Of a stretch of 64,000 bases of DNA, positions 5,519 through 25,677 are shown piece by piece (the stretch's first letter is position 1; every line of letters starts with the position of its first letter). The DNA comes from Escherichia phage vB_Eco_TB37. The notes beneath the pieces were generated by a model. It made no database searches and had not been told where the DNA came from. It was given only the letters and a program-made list of their open reading frames with translations. A program made the translations under genes and the position numbers. The stretch lies in the sequence record OZ035850. One strand, written 5' to 3'.

Positions 5519-6199
5519 TTATTTTAATGTTACGAAAGAAGAATTGCGTGTTTCACGAATTAAAACTGATCCGTCACGGTTAATGTAATAAATTAAGCTA
5601 AATAAAGTTTGGTGTGCTGACGCGTGTTCAAAACTAGTTGGGTGAGATTTCCAATCAGGAGTTTCAGCAATCCATTGATAAATCCACCAAGGAACAGTGC
5701 AGAATCCTGGATTTTTTCCAATCAGCTGAAGATTTGGGCTAAAGTTTTCTGGAAGAGTAAATACAGACGGCTTTTCAGATTCAATAATCTCAGCTACAGC
5801 CTGTTCGAATTTTTCTTCAACAAAAGGAGTATCTTCAATCAAAACATCGGTATTTTCAGGAATTTTATCCGTTTCTACTACTTCAATTTTAATGTCAGAT
5901 TTAACCGGAGAATCAATCAGAAGTGCTGCCTCTGGATTGACTTCTTCATCGTCATATTTTAATCCGTCTGCAGCATCAGCAGCATCAATTAAGTCTTTAA
6001 TAGATAACCCATCAGTCTCTGGCATAGGTTCACTAGCGAGCTTCTGGAGGGCTTCTTCAATATCATTAACGATATTATCAAAAGATTTATTCTTTTTGAC
6101 CTTTATACCAAACTGTTCAGCATATTCAGCTAATTTAGCTTTAGCTTCTTTATTATCATCAAGAGCCTTCAGCTCTGCAATATAATCTTTATCTATCAT
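5519..6199 (-). CDS. inh: Inh, inhibitor of prohead protease
   Basis: 226 aa, position between hoc and uvsW and length match T4 inh. Confidence 0.8.
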   Translation of the reverse strand: MIDKDYIAELKALDDNKEAKAKLAEYAEQFGIKVKKNKSFDNIVNDIEEALQKLASEPMPETDGLSIKDLIDAADAADGLKYDDEEVNPEAALLIDSPVKSDIKIEVVETDKIPENTDVLIEDTPFVEEKFEQAVAEIIESEKPSVFTLPENFSPNLQLIGKNPGFCTVPWWIYQWIAETPDWKSHPTSFEHASAHQTLFSLIYYINRDGSVLIRETRNSSFVTLK

Positions 6200-6212
6200 A
6201 ATATTTCCTCAG

Positions 6213-6220
6213 TATAAATA
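6213..6220 (+). promoter_or_regulatory. Late promoter (TATAAATA) for uvsW
   Basis: Exact TATAAATA 30 nt upstream of the uvsW ATG. Confidence 0.7.
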
Positions 6221-6249
6221 TAGATATATTTATTACATGGTATTTAGAC

Positions 6250-7761
6250 ATGACTGACATTAAAGTACATTTTTATGATTTTAGTCACGTGAGAATTGAT
6301 TGTGAAGAAAGTACATTTCATGAACTCCGTGATTTCTTTAGCTTTGAAGCTGATGGGTATCGTTTTAATCCGAAATACAAATATGGCCACTGGGATGGAC
6401 GAATCCGTCTTTTAGATTATAATCGTCTTCTTCCATTCGGCTTAGTCGGGCAAATTAAAAAGTTCTGTGATAACTTTGGCTATAAAGCCTGGATTGACCC
6501 ACAGATTAACGAAAAAGAAGAATTATCAAGAAAAGATTTTGATGAATGGCTTTCTAAATTAGAAATCTATTCAGGAAATAAAAGAATTGAACCGCACTGG
6601 TATCAAAAAGATGCAGTGTTCGAAGGATTAGTTAATCGTCGTAGAATTCTTAATCTTCCAACATCTGCAGGTAAATCTTTAATTCAAGCTTTGCTTGCGC
6701 GATATTATTTGGAAAATTATGAAGGTAAAATTCTTATCATTGTTCCAACAACTGCTCTGACAACTCAGATGGCTGATGACTTCGTTGACTATCGTTTATT
6801 CAGTCATGCAATGATAAAGAAAATTGGTGGCGGAGCATCAAAAGATGATAAATATAAAAATGATGCACCAGTTGTTGTTGGTACATGGCAAACTGTAGTA
6901 AAACAACCAAAAGAATGGTTCTCACAGTTTGGAATGATGATGAATGATGAATGCCATCTTGCTACAGGAAAAAGTATTTCATCTATCATATCAGGTTTAA
7001 ATAACTGCATGTTCAAATTCGGTTTGTCTGGTTCATTACGTGATGGTAAAGCCAATATCATGCAGTATGTTGGAATGTTTGGTGAAATATTTAAGCCAGT
7101 AACGACTTCTAAGTTAATGGAAGATGGACAAGTAACTGAGCTAAAAATTAATAGTATTTTTCTTCGCTATCCCGATGAGTTCACTACTAAATTAAAGGGA
7201 AAAACTTATCAAGAAGAAATAAAAATTATTACGGGGCTCAGTAAAAGAAATAAATGGATCGCTAAATTAGCTATTAAGCTTGCGCAAAAAGATGAAAACG
7301 CTTTTGTCATGTTTAAACATGTATCGCATGGTAAAGCTATTTTCGATTTAATTAAAAATGAATACGATAAAGTTTATTACGTATCAGGGGAAGTTGATAC
7401 CGAAACCCGCAATATAATGAAAACCTTAGCTGAAAATGGTAAAGGAATAATTATAGTAGCTAGTTATGGTGTATTTTCTACTGGTATTTCAGTTAAAAAT
7501 CTGCATCACGTTGTTTTAGCGCACGGTGTTAAATCAAAAATCATTGTATTACAAACAATCGGTCGTGTATTACGTAAGCATGGTTCTAAGACAATAGCAA
7601 CCGTCTGGGACCTCATAGATGATTGTGGCGTTAAGCCAAAATCTGCTAATACGAAAAAGAAATATGTTCATTTGAACTATCTTTTAAAACACGGCATTGA
7701 TCGTATTCAGCGCTATGCAGATGAAAAATTTAATTACGTAATGAAAACAGTTAATTTATAA
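6250..7761 (+). CDS. uvsW: UvsW DNA/RNA helicase
   Basis: 503 aa; Walker A PTSAGKS and DECH box; N-terminus as T4 UvsW. Confidence 0.96.
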   Translation: MTDIKVHFYDFSHVRIDCEESTFHELRDFFSFEADGYRFNPKYKYGHWDGRIRLLDYNRLLPFGLVGQIKKFCDNFGYKAWIDPQINEKEELSRKDFDEWLSKLEIYSGNKRIEPHWYQKDAVFEGLVNRRRILNLPTSAGKSLIQALLARYYLENYEGKILIIVPTTALTTQMADDFVDYRLFSHAMIKKIGGGASKDDKYKNDAPVVVGTWQTVVKQPKEWFSQFGMMMNDECHLATGKSISSIISGLNNCMFKFGLSGSLRDGKANIMQYVGMFGEIFKPVTTSKLMEDGQVTELKINSIFLRYPDEFTTKLKGKTYQEEIKIITGLSKRNKWIAKLAIKLAQKDENAFVMFKHVSHGKAIFDLIKNEYDKVYYVSGEVDTETRNIMKTLAENGKGIIIVASYGVFSTGISVKNLHHVVLAHGVKSKIIVLQTIGRVLRKHGSKTIATVWDLIDDCGVKPKSANTKKKYVHLNYLLKHGIDRIQRYADEKFNYVMKTVNL

Positions 7762-16629: not shown

Positions 16630-16672
16630 CAGTAAGACTACTATAACACAACACGAGGGACTTGTAAACTAC
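16630..16672 (-). promoter_or_regulatory. Early promoter upstream of the alt.-3-position ORF
   Basis: Minus strand reads GTTTACA, 17-nt spacer, TTATAGT; 54 bp near-identical to the alc promoter region. Confidence 0.6.
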
Positions 16673-18726
16673 ATCTTGAACTTTTTAGACATTCCGTTGA
16701 TGTTAACCAAAGAAGCCAAGATTTGAGAAACTTCGTTTTCCTCTTCTTTTGATTCTTCTACAAGGAATTGATTAAATCCAGCCATTGGACGAACTTCACC
16801 AGTTTCCATTAAATGGTCGCCATCATATACTGATTCTTCTAATTGTTCAGAAGGAGGAACGATTGTACCTTCGATTAGATACTTGTTATAAGCAGTTTCT
16901 TTCATAAAGTACGTACTTACTTTATTAATCTTCAGTAAAATTCCACGCGGTAGAATAACTTCAGCTTCTGATGGAAATCCTGATAAATGACCTGGAACGA
17001 TAACTTTGATTCGCTCAGCTCCTTTAATTACCATACCCACGCTAGTTTCAGCATCTTCAATGGCATATGTAGAATGACTACCCATATGCATTAAATCTTC
17101 TGCATCAACGGAACCTTCTCCTTCGCCAGAAAATACTGCGCCGGAATCATCTAGAGCCATATAGTTTTTACCATGCTCACCGAAGATATTTGGTTTAAGT
17201 GATGTCGATACGAAGTTCTTGAAATAGAACATTTTGTTTTCAATGTTATGACGCAAAGTTTTAAAGGTAACTTCTTGTCCACGGTAAAGTGTAGTTCCTG
17301 GAGGAAGAACTGATCCTTTGGCAAAGGCAGAATCCAACGTCTCGATGTGCTTAATAGCTCGTTCCATATATTCTTCACGGGTAGAATCTGGTTTACCCAA
17401 AAGGAACGAGTTCATTTCAACATATGAATCTGCACAATAATCTTCAATTACATCAGATTCAGCTTGGGTTAATCCTTTTGGAGTTACTTCGGTGCTTGCG
17501 TATTCATATGCCTGGGCAGCAGATTCATTAATCAATTTATAAATGCCATTCATGACAAATTGAATAATAGCTGTCTTTTCATCTGGCGTAGCTTTAGAAC
17601 CTTTAACTAAATCATTAATAATTTTCTTAATAACATCAAAGCTATTAGAAATATTAATGTCAGCAAGATCGCTTAAAATTTTATCAGTTTTATAATCAAA
17701 GAATTCTTTATTCTTTAAATATTCTTGAGAACCTTGATATGTTATATCGCTCTGCAACTTGATAGATGGATCACGTAAACGTGCATGGGCTAATGCAATA
17801 TGATTTCGGAAGTTTTCTAGTTCATAATCGTTAGATTTAAAACGAGAAGCACTTCTCATACCACCGATAGCTCCTTTGCTAAAGTTTGAACCAATCTGGA
17901 TAACCCCGGAGTTCATCGGACCTTCTGCTTTATATACCGGAACTTTAGATTCAAACTCTTGATATTTCTTGGCAGCGAAGCTATCACCCTGGAGTGAAGC
18001 ATCAACAGTAGAATATTGAGCTTGTGCTGCTAATCGACGACTAATTTTAGTTTTCTGAATAACAGCTTGATCCGTGCGCTTATCATTTTCTAAAGCAATA
18101 GAAGCAGCAACAGCAACAGCTTTAGGAACAGCATTACCTGTTTTAACGTCTACATAAACATCACCAACCTTTGATTCAACTTTTGTGAATAACTCAGTTG
18201 AAATAGGAGGTACACCTGGAATGTCTTCTAAATTGGCATTTTTACGGTAAACCATAATATATGCATATTTCTTATCATAGTCCCAGATTTCCTTTAAGAG
18301 AACATATCGACCTGCTCCTTTAGTACGTACTAAACGGTCAGCAATAACTTGCATTTGACGAGCTGCGCCATTTGTTTTACTCTTTAGTACGCGGAATAGG
18401 CATGCGTCGATTTTATACTGTTTCATTGTTTGAAGAGCAGTATCAAAAACAGCATTAATGACGCCAATTGGATTTCCACCCAAGTTTCTAAGCTTAACCA
18501 GCGATAATTTCTCGTTGACACCTATCATTACGATATGCATCATTTTATCGCCCGGCTTAACGTTTTTATTTGTATCACCGCCAGAGGTGTATGTACAAAA
18601 TCTAAATCCAGGAAGCACGCTTTCTTCACCGGCTTGAATAGCAAAAATTTGAGGTATTTTATGCTTAGGATTTAAGTTAACAACCGGCGCCGAAGCGCCG
18701 TCAAATAATTCTGTAATAAGTTCCAT
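16669..18726 (-). CDS. Alt-like ADP-ribosyltransferase, second paralog
   Basis: 685 aa; N-terminus MELITELFD…; R-S-ExE signature read as YRGQ, FVSTSL, EAEVILPRG. Confidence 0.85.
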   Translation of the reverse strand: MELITELFDGASAPVVNLNPKHKIPQIFAIQAGEESVLPGFRFCTYTSGGDTNKNVKPGDKMMHIVMIGVNEKLSLVKLRNLGGNPIGVINAVFDTALQTMKQYKIDACLFRVLKSKTNGAARQMQVIADRLVRTKGAGRYVLLKEIWDYDKKYAYIMVYRKNANLEDIPGVPPISTELFTKVESKVGDVYVDVKTGNAVPKAVAVAASIALENDKRTDQAVIQKTKISRRLAAQAQYSTVDASLQGDSFAAKKYQEFESKVPVYKAEGPMNSGVIQIGSNFSKGAIGGMRSASRFKSNDYELENFRNHIALAHARLRDPSIKLQSDITYQGSQEYLKNKEFFDYKTDKILSDLADINISNSFDVIKKIINDLVKGSKATPDEKTAIIQFVMNGIYKLINESAAQAYEYASTEVTPKGLTQAESDVIEDYCADSYVEMNSFLLGKPDSTREEYMERAIKHIETLDSAFAKGSVLPPGTTLYRGQEVTFKTLRHNIENKMFYFKNFVSTSLKPNIFGEHGKNYMALDDSGAVFSGEGEGSVDAEDLMHMGSHSTYAIEDAETSVGMVIKGAERIKVIVPGHLSGFPSEAEVILPRGILLKINKVSTYFMKETAYNKYLIEGTIVPPSEQLEESVYDGDHLMETGEVRPMAGFNQFLVEESKEEENEVSQILASLVNINGMSKKFKM

Positions 18727-20875: not shown

Positions 20876-21064
20876 TTAATAATCTATTGGTAAGAGAGTA
20901 CGATATATTTCAAACTTTGGACCTTTTTCATAAGCATCAAAAGTTTCTGTGAATTTATTATAAGCATATGCATCTATAAATTCAATCATGATTTGTGATA
21001 CAGAAGTAGAAACATCTCCACCTTCTTTTTGAGCCACGACAATTGTTTCTAAGTAAGCTTTCAT
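20876..21064 (-). CDS. Hypothetical protein
   Basis: 62-aa ORF between gene 30 and alt; stop lies within a GC hairpin. Confidence 0.45.
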   Translation of the reverse strand: MKAYLETIVVAQKEGGDVSTSVSQIMIEFIDAYAYNKFTETFDAYEKGPKFEIYRTLLPIDY

Positions 21065-22524
21065 AGACCAGTTACCTCATGAAAATCACCAAATACATCT
21101 TCGAATGTATTAGCTTTAGTTTTATCTTCACGTAAACGAATCGCAATCGGAAGAAATAATTTAACGTAATCAGTGCGGCCATCAGATTTTAACCAACCGT
21201 TGCATTCGCACTCTAGAATTTTTCCAATATAATAATTTTGATTTTCCATAATGCGAGTACGGTCAAGTTCATGTGATTTTACGCCGGCTTTATCTTTTAA
21301 GCCTGAACCCGCATTTACCTTAATTTTTCCACACTCTGACTCAAGAATAAATCCACCTGCTTTAGTAGGGTCTTTACGGTGAGGATAAATTCCTACAATT
21401 TTTAAATCAACATCAATTACTTCTTTAAATTTATAGAGATTTTTTGAACGAGCATTTTCCCATAATCCATCGATATTTTTGAGAATAATACCTTCAAGAC
21501 CTTGGTCAATATACTTTTTATAAATTACCTTAGCTTCATCTAGGTTATTTACTACTTGGTTTTCAATTAAAATTACTTTATCATAGCCTGATGTCATTTG
21601 TTCTAGTTTAGAAAAACGTACATCATATTTCAAACGAAATGCTGGAAGACCGTATATTTCTACCAACGGAACATAATCCCAGACCTGAAACTTCATGCAT
21701 TGTGCTTCTTTTTCTGAAATAGTTCCCTTTAAAGATTTATTAGCGATTCCATTAGAAGTAGTACGTGATTCAGCTACTTCAGCAAACTCTTTAGCTTTAC
21801 TAATTTCAGGATAAGCATCAAAAAGAAAATCTAGGCCTTCTGGCTCCTTTTTAACTTGCTCATGGTATACCAATTCGCCATCAATTAACACACCTTCTGG
21901 ATGAATCTGGCGGGCTTCAGCGGTCATTTTGATTAACTCTTCCTTAAGAAGATCTAATCCTAGATATTCATTACCAGCTCGTGATAAAAGACGGACATCA
22001 TCTAATTCATCACCTCTAACTTCAGCAAAACACCGAGCTCCATCTGCTTTTAATTGTGCAAAGGCTGGAAATTTGATATTCTTACTAATGCCTTTTTCAT
22101 CATAAGAACTTGCGAGCATTTGAGGTTGTTCAGGAATTAAACCTGGCCAAACTTTGTTTGCAATAGATACTGAAGCACCACATTCAAGGTCTCGCATCAT
22201 CACTCGACGCAAAACTTCAACATCATCTTTTTTACCGTCAGTAATATAACCTACTAATTCCTCAATTGCCGCATTTCCAGTCAATTTCCGAGTAGCTAAT
22301 GTAAATTCAATGAAGTCAAGCATATCGGTAAGAGTCAACATTCCAAAACTCTGGGTAGCAATACCAGGTTTAGGCCATTTCTTGATATAATACTGCAACC
22401 CACGAGAATAAGTCAGACGATATACTCGTTTAAGCAATTCATTATCTTTATTCTTTTCAAGAATTGCTTGCTTCTGCTTAGTTGAACCAATAGATGCTAT
22501 TTCGTTCAGAATTTTAAGAATCAT
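21061..22524 (-). CDS. 30: ATP-dependent DNA ligase gp30
   Basis: 487 aa; adenylation motif KADGARC; N-terminus MILKILNEIASIGSTKQKQ as T4 ligase. Confidence 0.97.
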   Translation of the reverse strand: MILKILNEIASIGSTKQKQAILEKNKDNELLKRVYRLTYSRGLQYYIKKWPKPGIATQSFGMLTLTDMLDFIEFTLATRKLTGNAAIEELVGYITDGKKDDVEVLRRVMMRDLECGASVSIANKVWPGLIPEQPQMLASSYDEKGISKNIKFPAFAQLKADGARCFAEVRGDELDDVRLLSRAGNEYLGLDLLKEELIKMTAEARQIHPEGVLIDGELVYHEQVKKEPEGLDFLFDAYPEISKAKEFAEVAESRTTSNGIANKSLKGTISEKEAQCMKFQVWDYVPLVEIYGLPAFRLKYDVRFSKLEQMTSGYDKVILIENQVVNNLDEAKVIYKKYIDQGLEGIILKNIDGLWENARSKNLYKFKEVIDVDLKIVGIYPHRKDPTKAGGFILESECGKIKVNAGSGLKDKAGVKSHELDRTRIMENQNYYIGKILECECNGWLKSDGRTDYVKLFLPIAIRLREDKTKANTFEDVFGDFHEVTGL

Positions 22525-22790
22525 TGTTCATCCTTTAGAGTTTGGTTTACAGCTCTATTATAAATCAATTCATCATTAAGCTCAGTCAAAGACCTATGAT
22601 ATGTGGTTCTAACTTTATTTCCTTGCATCCAGTGCTTGACGTAAATGAAACCTTGCTCTACACATTTTTTAAAAATTCGTTCGTCTTTTTGAGCTCGGAA
22701 TTCTGGATTGCATCTAAAAAATTGATTTACGTGACCATAATCACGTGTAGTATTACCTTCATTTTCATAAATAGTGTGAACAACAAACAT
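22521..22790 (-). CDS. Hypothetical protein (T4 30.1 position)
   Basis: 89-aa ORF, ATGA overlap with gene 30. Confidence 0.6.
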   Translation of the reverse strand: MFVVHTIYENEGNTTRDYGHVNQFFRCNPEFRAQKDERIFKKCVEQGFIYVKHWMQGNKVRTTYHRSLTELNDELIYNRAVNQTLKDEQ

Positions 22791-23626
22791 TAGAATGCTC
22801 CTTGGAAAATATTATCACCACAAGTAGGTCTATTATACAAATACTCTATACCACCGGGTTTAATATAGTTCCATGTCTGAAACGGATGCGTCTGATATGG
22901 ATGATATGGATTATAAGGATTAAATCCAGGAGTTCTCCAGGTAGTGTTCCAACGAAAAGAATCATTTTTAATCATCTTCTCGATTGTATCTTTTATAGCT
23001 TTTTCACGATCAAAACTTTCTTTATTTTCCTTCAATGGAAAAAGCTTATTCTCTACATCATTCCATGTATAAACTCGCTGTGCAGTTTTTGGAATACTGT
23101 CACGCTCTCCTCGAGCCATCCAATACACAGGAACACGTAATATTTCACTCGCATGATCGCAGTGGTGAGCGAGATCGTCAATATAACAAATTACGTTATA
23201 TTTCTCTTTTGCCTTTTTGAACAACTCTTCTTTTGAAGAATCATGACCACACATCATTACTTCTGAGAAGGCACCAGGAAAAAGAGCATTCAAATTAAAT
23301 TGACGATTCAACAGAGCGTCAATAGAATCACCCAATGCTGTAACAGCTACAAAATTATAATCTTCTTTTAATTTGTTAATTACACACAGAGCATCTTTAT
23401 ATGGAGACAAGTAACGAATAAAATCTGATCGATTGTATTTTTCAATTAGCTTAACGCCAAGTTCTTCATCACAGTTAAAGAGTTTACCAGGAGAAATAAA
23501 TTTCTCATCTTGGATCATTTTTAAAATATGTTCTAACGGAAGATTATATTTCTGAGCAAAATAAGGAAGGCCTGATTGCCAGCTTAAACATACTCCATCA
23601 ATATCAGTTAAAATAGTAGGCTTCAT
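22790..23626 (-). CDS. HAD-superfamily hydrolase-like protein (T4 30.2 position)
   Basis: 278 aa; N-terminal ILTDIDGV resembles HAD motif I; C-terminal NPYNPYHPY repeat tail. Confidence 0.65.
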   Translation of the reverse strand: MKPTILTDIDGVCLSWQSGLPYFAQKYNLPLEHILKMIQDEKFISPGKLFNCDEELGVKLIEKYNRSDFIRYLSPYKDALCVINKLKEDYNFVAVTALGDSIDALLNRQFNLNALFPGAFSEVMMCGHDSSKEELFKKAKEKYNVICYIDDLAHHCDHASEILRVPVYWMARGERDSIPKTAQRVYTWNDVENKLFPLKENKESFDREKAIKDTIEKMIKNDSFRWNTTWRTPGFNPYNPYHPYQTHPFQTWNYIKPGGIEYLYNRPTCGDNIFQGAF

Positions 23627-24087
23627 AGAGAGTCTCTTAATAGGTTTAACACATCAATAAATTCAGCTTCGGTTAGTATTGTATCATCTTTTGTTAGACC
23701 ACTAGCCATGCTGTGCTTCAAAACTTTTCCTTTCGAGGCTTGTAATGCATCACGAAAGCCCTTGTTTTGGATCGCTGCTTCAAAATATGCATTTGTGTAT
23801 AATTCTTTCCACGCCGGGGAGTATCTTGAAAATGGAACTCCAAGCCAGAAGAGGGTCCCATGGTCCTGAGCTCTAGCATAAGACCTTCCAGCTTGTTGGG
23901 CGGCAAGCCCGGATAATCCAAATATACGACGTTGTTGTTCAACGTTTTTCACCTTACATCCTTGGAGGAATCCTTCGAGACCTCCGAATTGAATACCATC
24001 CATGACGAAAGGCCATTGGGCAAAATTACTTAATGCGCATGATGGCCATCTAAAATTACTTCTAATCTCTAACTCAGACATTTTCAA
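23623..24087 (-). CDS. NADAR (YbiA-like, DUF1768) domain protein (T4 30.3 position)
   Basis: 154 aa; LSNFAQWPFVMDGIQFGGLEGFLQGCK resembles the E. coli YbiA/NADAR core. Confidence 0.6.
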   Translation of the reverse strand: MKMSELEIRSNFRWPSCALSNFAQWPFVMDGIQFGGLEGFLQGCKVKNVEQQRRIFGLSGLAAQQAGRSYARAQDHGTLFWLGVPFSRYSPAWKELYTNAYFEAAIQNKGFRDALQASKGKVLKHSMASGLTKDDTILTEAEFIDVLNLLRDSL

Positions 24088-24280
24088 TGCTTATAATTTC
24101 AACATCAGCCCAATGACCATAGCAAGGAAGACGAAATTCAACTGGCCAGTTAGGGTCCTTTTCTAATATAATAGACTTAACTTGTGGTTCTTCGTGTTCA
24201 TCAGTATACGGATTTTTATCTGTTACTTTATATGTGACCTTAATGTACTGAATTCCAAAAATCTTATTAATTATATTCAT
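24074..24280 (-). CDS. Hypothetical protein
   Basis: 68-aa ORF in the early cluster between 30.3 and rIII. Confidence 0.5.
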   Translation of the reverse strand: MNIINKIFGIQYIKVTYKVTDKNPYTDEHEEPQVKSIILEKDPNWPVEFRLPCYGHWADVEIISIENV

Positions 24281-25628: not shown

Positions 25629-25677
25629 TTATGCAATCTTTGGAAAATAAAAAAGGACTCCCGAAGGAGTCCTCAAC

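Follow-up and report, generated by a model that had tools for sequence, protein, structure and literature searches.

An intact adfN (gene 30.3) allele encoding a phage-type NADAR enzyme in Escherichia phage vB_Eco_TB37

Resistance of T-even phages to the DarTG1 system has been mapped to gene 30.3, renamed adfN for anti-DarT factor NADAR (Johannesman et al., Nat Commun 2025, PMC11825919). T4 gp30.3, i.e., AdfN, was necessary and sufficient for this resistance, as established with the T4 and T2 alleles (PMC11825919), and adfN-T4 supplied ectopically rescued RB69, a DarTG1-sensitive phage in whose own allele a frameshift removes the last 15 residues (PMC11825919). The substitutions E36A and K43A and a C-terminal truncation each weakened AdfN-T4; the purified enzyme, but not its E36A form, stripped ADP-ribose from DarT1-modified DNA, and AdfN did not bind DarT1 (PMC11825919). 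In an independent study, the T4 NADAR hydrolysed guanine-ADP-ribose (G-ADPr) but not thymidine-ADPr in vitro (PMC11125620), and a 2026 paper places a phage NADAR among the enzymes reversing G-ADPr but not C-ADPr (PMC12945103). When T4 was screened with transposons (HIDEN-SEQ preprint), insertions in 30.3 were neutral on K-12 and essentially eliminated on a DarTG1 host (Data S6: mean count falling from 261.0 to 0.7, log2FC -7.25, adjusted p ~0). The activity is specific to DarTG1, which acts on guanine, and is not directed against DarTG2, which acts on thymidine (PMC11125620; HIDEN-SEQ preprint). De-ADP-ribosylation of any DNA is an incomplete account of the mechanism, because AdfN-T4 did not rescue uninfected E. 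coli from DarT1 (PMC11125620) and helped the non-T-even phages T5 and Bas25 only weakly, for which the authors propose a T-even-encoded factor. Published experiments with T4-GT7 have excluded that this T-even specificity stems from hydroxymethyl- or glucosyl-cytosine in the DNA.

The NADAR assignment of gp30.3 was published earlier on bioinformatic grounds and its function was demonstrated experimentally in 2024-2025, and the copy described below is therefore not a new one. According to the bioinformatic literature, the NADARs of T4-like phages are early genes expressed together with ADP-ribosyltransferases. T-even phages carry two other counter-defences against DarTG systems, AdfA (T4 61.2) and AdfM (T4 tk.4), which differ from AdfN in their mode of action: the RB69 R164H allele of AdfA, found in an escape mutant, associates with DarT1 and is non-enzymatic (PMC11825919), and AdfM is a macrodomain protein acting against DarTG2, i.e., on thymidine (HIDEN-SEQ preprint).

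The DNA analysed here, hereafter the window, is a stretch of 64,000 nt from Escherichia phage vB_Eco_TB37 (sequence record OZ035850). Over a 2-kb stretch around its adfN gene, identity is 100% with Escherichia phage slur07 (Tequatrovirus) and 97.5% with T4, and related phage records number 668; from T4 synteny, the genes for AdfA and AdfM should lie outside the window. The first-pass annotation had given the adfN product as 154 aa. The ORF itself is real, as it lies on the minus strand, is open without interruption and ends at 23623, but the proposed start did not stand: TTG at 24087 adds two codons to the reading frame from ATG at 24081, which in the window is the start of the 459-nt, 152-aa CDS annotated for 30.3 in the T4T and slur07 records. 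The TTG is a mechanical ORF boundary, and ATG 24081 is the likely true start. The gene and its two overlapping neighbours are as follows.

23623..24081, minus strand: adfN (T4 gene 30.3) CDS, 459 nt, 152 aa plus stop, phage-type NADAR DNA ADP-ribosylglycohydrolase
24074..24280, minus strand: gene 30.4, 68 aa, its end sharing 8 nt with adfN
24074..24081, minus strand: 8-nt overlap, between the ATG that opens adfN (24079..24081) and the TGA that closes gene 30.4 (24074..24076), read from the sequence
22790..23626, minus strand: gene 30.2, HAD-fold protein
23623..23626, minus strand: ATGA, in which the TGA that closes adfN and the ATG that opens gene 30.2 overlap, read from the sequence

Through the 8-nt overlap, translation of adfN may possibly be coupled to that of 30.4. 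Within adfN, an internal ORF in the +1 frame (23718..23942, minus strand) corresponds to 30.3' annotated in T4, with 74 aa and a PHROG of its own (phrog_14037), and some distant relatives likewise have an uninterrupted +1 frame of 76-126 codons; base composition alone could explain this, and the sequences are too few to give it weight. A terminator-like hairpin inside adfN (23929..23945) was a weak match in a region where the counts of such sites equal those in shuffled sequence, and we treated it as a chance occurrence.

The window protein is identical to T4 gp30.3 at 150 of 152 residues, with R74H and I125M as the differences, and is collinear with it to the last residue. It matches the Pfam family PF08010 (Phage_30_3) over the entire profile of 138 positions, scoring 234.1 bits (E 5e-70) where the gathering cutoff is 36. 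We collected 103 homologues of gp30.3 and aligned the 63 that were full-length, down to ~35% identity (alignment A1); every one of the 63 matches PF08010. The link to NADAR rests on profiles and fold, because the protein's own sequence reaches neither the Pfam NADAR family PF08719, to which it gave no match even at E<=1, nor any NADAR chain: single-sequence phmmer against PDB sequences gave nothing meaningful, the NCBIfam search with the window protein alone gave no NADAR link, and the PHROGs search led only to an unannotated family. Read to the letter, the refuting condition of the first-pass annotation, absence of a significant NADAR profile match, thus applies to the single sequence; at family level, 8 of the 63 homologues match PF08719 (best E 1.5e-7).

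The first-pass annotation had based its NADAR reading on the resemblance of a stretch of the product, LSNFAQWPFVMDGIQFGGLEGFLQGCK, to a stretch of E. coli YbiA, FSNFAAWPIKVDGKTWPTSEHYFQAQK. The former is present as residues 17-43 in the 152-aa numbering, and the latter corresponds without mismatch to residues 29-55 of YbiA from E. coli K-12. Their similarity goes beyond chance: when PDB was searched with the 63-member family profile, the sole match was YbiA (2b3w, E 0.006), over this very stretch, and hhalign of A1 against YbiA gave 94.4% probability (E 9e-8, residues 15-122). An AlphaFold2 model of the window protein built from A1 (pLDDT 92.8, pTM 0.88) has the alpha+beta fold of NADAR, with a helical core and small flanking beta-hairpins, and its top Foldseek ranks were YbiA (E 7e-5, TM 0.67), the Phytophthora NADAR with ADP-ribose (8bau) and the Geobacter lovleyi NADAR/DarG1 (8bat). 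The predicted structure is thus a NADAR fold and no unrelated one, and membership of the window protein in NADAR is real at the level of family and fold.

Residues on which published activity depends could be located in the window, together with a residue diagnostic of the subfamily.

23953..24033, minus strand: N-terminal NADAR motif LSNF...GLEGFLQGCK, codons 17-43, including E36 and K43
23974..23976, minus strand: codon of catalytic E36, invariant in the 63 homologues
23953..23955, minus strand: codon of catalytic K43, at least 90% conserved in the 63 homologues
23713..23715, minus strand: codon of H123, invariant in the 63 homologues; strand 120-123 is the last beta-strand of the model
23626..23670, minus strand: C-terminal alpha-helix, codons 138-152, intact; helix 138-151 is modelled with high confidence

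Residues 17-43 align to YbiA 29-55 with no gap, E36 corresponding to E48 and K43 to K55, so that the N-terminal E-x3-Q-x2-K motif of NADAR has both its catalytic Glu and its catalytic Lys; L17, S18, N19, F20, F25, E36, G37, F38 and Q40 are invariant in the 63 homologues. When the ungapped hhalign alignment is extended by one column, H123 stands opposite YbiA E125. A His in the last strand, in place of the Glu of YbiA-type or the Asp of DarG1-type proteins, is known as a hallmark of phage NADARs (PMC11543638; PMC11125620), and the window protein belongs to this phage (His) subfamily, not to the YbiA (Glu) subfamily and not to DarG1. The positions of R74H and I125M lie outside the columns that are invariant or at least 90% conserved in the 63-sequence alignment. 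Fragments of gp30.3 only, 86-109 aa long, are annotated in SV76, vB_Eco_NR1, UGJNEcP4 and RPN226 (proteins P0007, P0015, P0017 and P0051), and the match in vB_Eco_NR1 is 1 nt longer than the query; such fragments in Tequatrovirus records may represent recurrent adfN frameshifts as in RB69, or sequencing errors.

Compared with AdfN-T4, the window protein has the same length, the same start, the same E36, K43 and H123 and an intact C-terminal helix, and its gene occupies the same place between 30.4 and 30.2, near the ligase gene and alt; the differences are the two substitutions and the number of full-length alt paralogues, two in the window against one, with remnants, in T4. It differs from the antitoxins of the DarG1/BC4488 type (Geobacter lovleyi NADAR, 8bat; E. 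coli C7 DarG1): the NADAR motif starts as early as residue 17 of 152, and the window AdfN is therefore core-only, lacking their N-terminal extension; its last strand has His and not Asp; its gene is flanked by 30.4 and 30.2 with no DarT; and, according to the literature, AdfN-T4 cannot replace DarG1 in uninfected cells. With YbiA, which is closest both by profile and by Foldseek, it has in common the SNFA-WP-DG...E-x3-Q-x2-K motif, but the identity is only ~18-20%, YbiA Glu125 is replaced by His123, and ybiA is a chromosomal housekeeping gene adjoining dinG and ybiB. Neither YbiA nor the T4 NADAR protects uninfected cells from DarT1 (PMC11125620).

On these grounds the window gene is almost certainly an adfN allele of the slur07 type, encoding a minimal, core-only NADAR enzyme of the phage subfamily that acts against DarTG1. 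The identity of the gene, its fold, the conservation of its motif and residues, its intactness and its synteny are established in the window itself. We infer that the allele is functional, because E36, K43, H123 and the C-terminal helix are kept and both substitutions are at non-conserved positions; the activity and the DarTG1 phenotype are known from the 99%-identical T4 protein. The proposal of the first-pass annotation that the product could counter guanine ADP-ribosylation by DarT-type toxins agrees with the experiments published on the T4 orthologue, which show exactly that; its wider wording, a factor against DarTG-like systems, holds for DarTG1 (guanine) and fails for DarTG2 (thymidine). 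In a host carrying DarTG1, the DarT1 toxin would ADP-ribosylate guanines of the phage DNA and replication would be blocked; AdfN would then cut the N-glycosidic bond between guanine and ADP-ribose, returning unmodified DNA on which replication could proceed. Catalysis would depend on E36 and K43, for which contacts to the distal ribose and to ADP-ribose are seen in the homologous PnNADAR structure, and H123 of the last strand would take over from the usual Glu/Asp, with the C-terminal helix needed for full activity. AdfN would be, in effect, an orphan antitoxin carried by a phage.

The surroundings of the gene are those of T4. The part of the window at 20.8-27 kb is a run of co-directional genes on the minus strand, and the gene order in T4T and slur07 is alt, alt.1, 30 (DNA ligase), 30.1, 30.2, 30.3, 30.4 and 30.5 onward. 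The neighbourhood of DNA ligase and Alt ADP-ribosyltransferases described in the first-pass annotation was found in the window as follows, along with a promoter candidate.

21061..22524: DNA ligase
16669..18726, minus strand: Alt-like ADP-ribosyltransferase, full-length, 685 aa
18730..20826, minus strand: Alt-like ADP-ribosyltransferase, full-length, 698 aa
25237..25266, minus strand: candidate early promoter, sigma-70-like, TTGACA-18-TAAAAT, 11/12, the best match in a consensus scan

The two full-length alt-like genes are in tandem; in T4 a single alt is accompanied by alt.-1 and alt.-2, which are what is left of a decayed second copy. The promoter-like site precedes the gene string 30.7-30.6-30.5-30.4-adfN-30.2-30.1-ligase and is a candidate for its early promoter, the consensus scan being weak evidence, as the total of sites in the region was no higher than in shuffled sequence. 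Upstream of this site, between the 30.9/rIII region and gene 30.8, there is a strong terminator-like hairpin (25653..25674, minus strand) with a 9-bp stem including 5 G-C pairs, followed by a T-run.

Because YbiA is the sole PDB match of the sequence profile as well as the top Foldseek match, and because YbiA-type NADARs have been tied to riboflavin metabolism in the literature, the protein might be read as a YbiA-like N-glycosidase with a housekeeping role, its substrates being small molecules such as intermediates of the riboflavin pathway, and not DNA adducts. However, the last-strand Glu defining the YbiA subfamily is His here and throughout the 63 homologues, all gene contexts seen are those of phages, and the T4 protein acts on G-ADPr DNA, its loss giving a DarTG1-specific phenotype, so that we regard this reading as exceedingly improbable. 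We attach just as little credence to the idea that AdfN reverses off-target ADP-ribosylation of nucleic acids by the two neighbouring Alt paralogues, for which the co-localisation and co-expression of adfN with Alt-type ADP-ribosyltransferases would speak: Alt targets proteins according to the annotation of the T4T record, insertions in alt and in 30.3 are non-essential on K-12, with 30.3 mattering only in the presence of DarTG1, and distant homologues do not adjoin ADP-ribosyltransferases. Degradation of soluble immune signals or by-products derived from ADP-ribose, with DNA de-ADP-ribosylation as a side activity, had been put forward for phage NADARs in general ahead of the experiments, and a Nudix gene lies ~2.6 kb from the homologue on one metagenomic contig (L004); but the retention of the gene is already explained by the DNA activity in vitro and by 30.3 insertions being lost specifically on DarTG1, which makes this reading very unlikely as the main role, and it could co-exist with DNA de-ADP-ribosylation as a second activity of AdfN. 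This contig, 308 kb long and jumbo-phage-like, encodes the gp30.3-family NADAR at 6001-6468 (40% identity), with Nudix and Thg1-like genes a few kb away, and the gp30.3 family therefore extends well beyond T4-like phages and occurs in varied gene contexts.

The remaining alternatives concern partners of AdfN among its neighbours. The first-pass annotation had described the adjacent gene product as a HAD-like hydrolase and a possible partner. The fold was borne out. Searches of gp30.2 assigned it to no Pfam or NCBIfam family, and the single-sequence search of PDB gave no HAD support, but a profile of 39 homologues weakly matched 5'(3')-deoxyribonucleotidases (2jao, E 0.016), and D8, D10, K132, D150 and D151, corresponding to the HAD motifs DxD, K and DD, are invariant in the alignment. 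Its AlphaFold model, confident for residues 1-220, matched 99 PDB chains at E<=0.001; the best 50 of these 99 are all HAD-fold, with deoxyribonucleotidases among the best and 2jao at the top (E 2.5e-8). Disorder is predicted for the last ~50 residues of gp30.2 (228-278), in which Pro, Tyr and Asn are abundant. A two-enzyme module, in which gp30.2 might, for example, dephosphorylate the released ADP-ribose or nucleotides, would be in keeping with the ATGA overlap, with the nearness of the fold to 5'(3')-deoxyribonucleotidases, with the invariance of DxD, K and DD, with the preservation of the pair in a T4-like contig (L010/L011; 58% identity for AdfN and 61% for gp30.2) and with the further T-even factor that full AdfN-T4 activity calls for in the literature. 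In T4, however, 30.2 is non-essential (HIDEN-SEQ preprint), and its insertions were neutral on DarTG1 (log2FC -0.12, p 0.61) when those in 30.3 were lost; AdfN is active alone in vitro (PMC11825919); and no 30.2 homologue was present within 5-6 kb in three AdfN lineages further removed, the pairing being found only within T4-like phages. We thus give such a module a slighter chance than the soluble-signal role discussed above, and a functional partnership of the two proteins in DarTG1 counter-defence is unlikely. In these lineages (L004-6 and L007-9, which are metagenomic, and L012-13) no homologue of gp30.1, 30.2, 30.4, 30.5 or 30.6 was found near the NADAR gene, and we rejected a conserved module of AdfN and HAD protein, as its neighbours are not shared there.

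Gene 30.4 drew attention for another reason: the DarTG1 table of HIDEN-SEQ contains exactly two significant genes, 30.3 and 30.4, the latter with a mild effect (log2FC -1.79, adjusted p 0.014). It is improbable, if somewhat less so than the other alternatives, that gp30.4 is a factor needed for full AdfN activity in T-even infection. The simplest explanation is a polar or translational-coupling effect of the insertions on adfN, because the end of 30.4 and the beginning of adfN overlap, and a helper role is disfavoured also because the T4-like relative with 58% AdfN identity has a homologue of 30.5, and not 30.4, directly upstream of adfN.

The locus adds no new biology to what has been reported for T4, and the restriction of full AdfN activity to T-even phages has already been raised as a question in the literature. 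The practical value for this genome is the correct annotation of adfN, which nearly all the records listed label as "hypothetical protein" or "Bacteriophage protein GP30.3". AdfN clearly exemplifies an orphan antitoxin-like phage enzyme that undoes the chemical damage inflicted on DNA by a host defence, and from its intact allele the phage of the window is predicted to be resistant to DarTG1.
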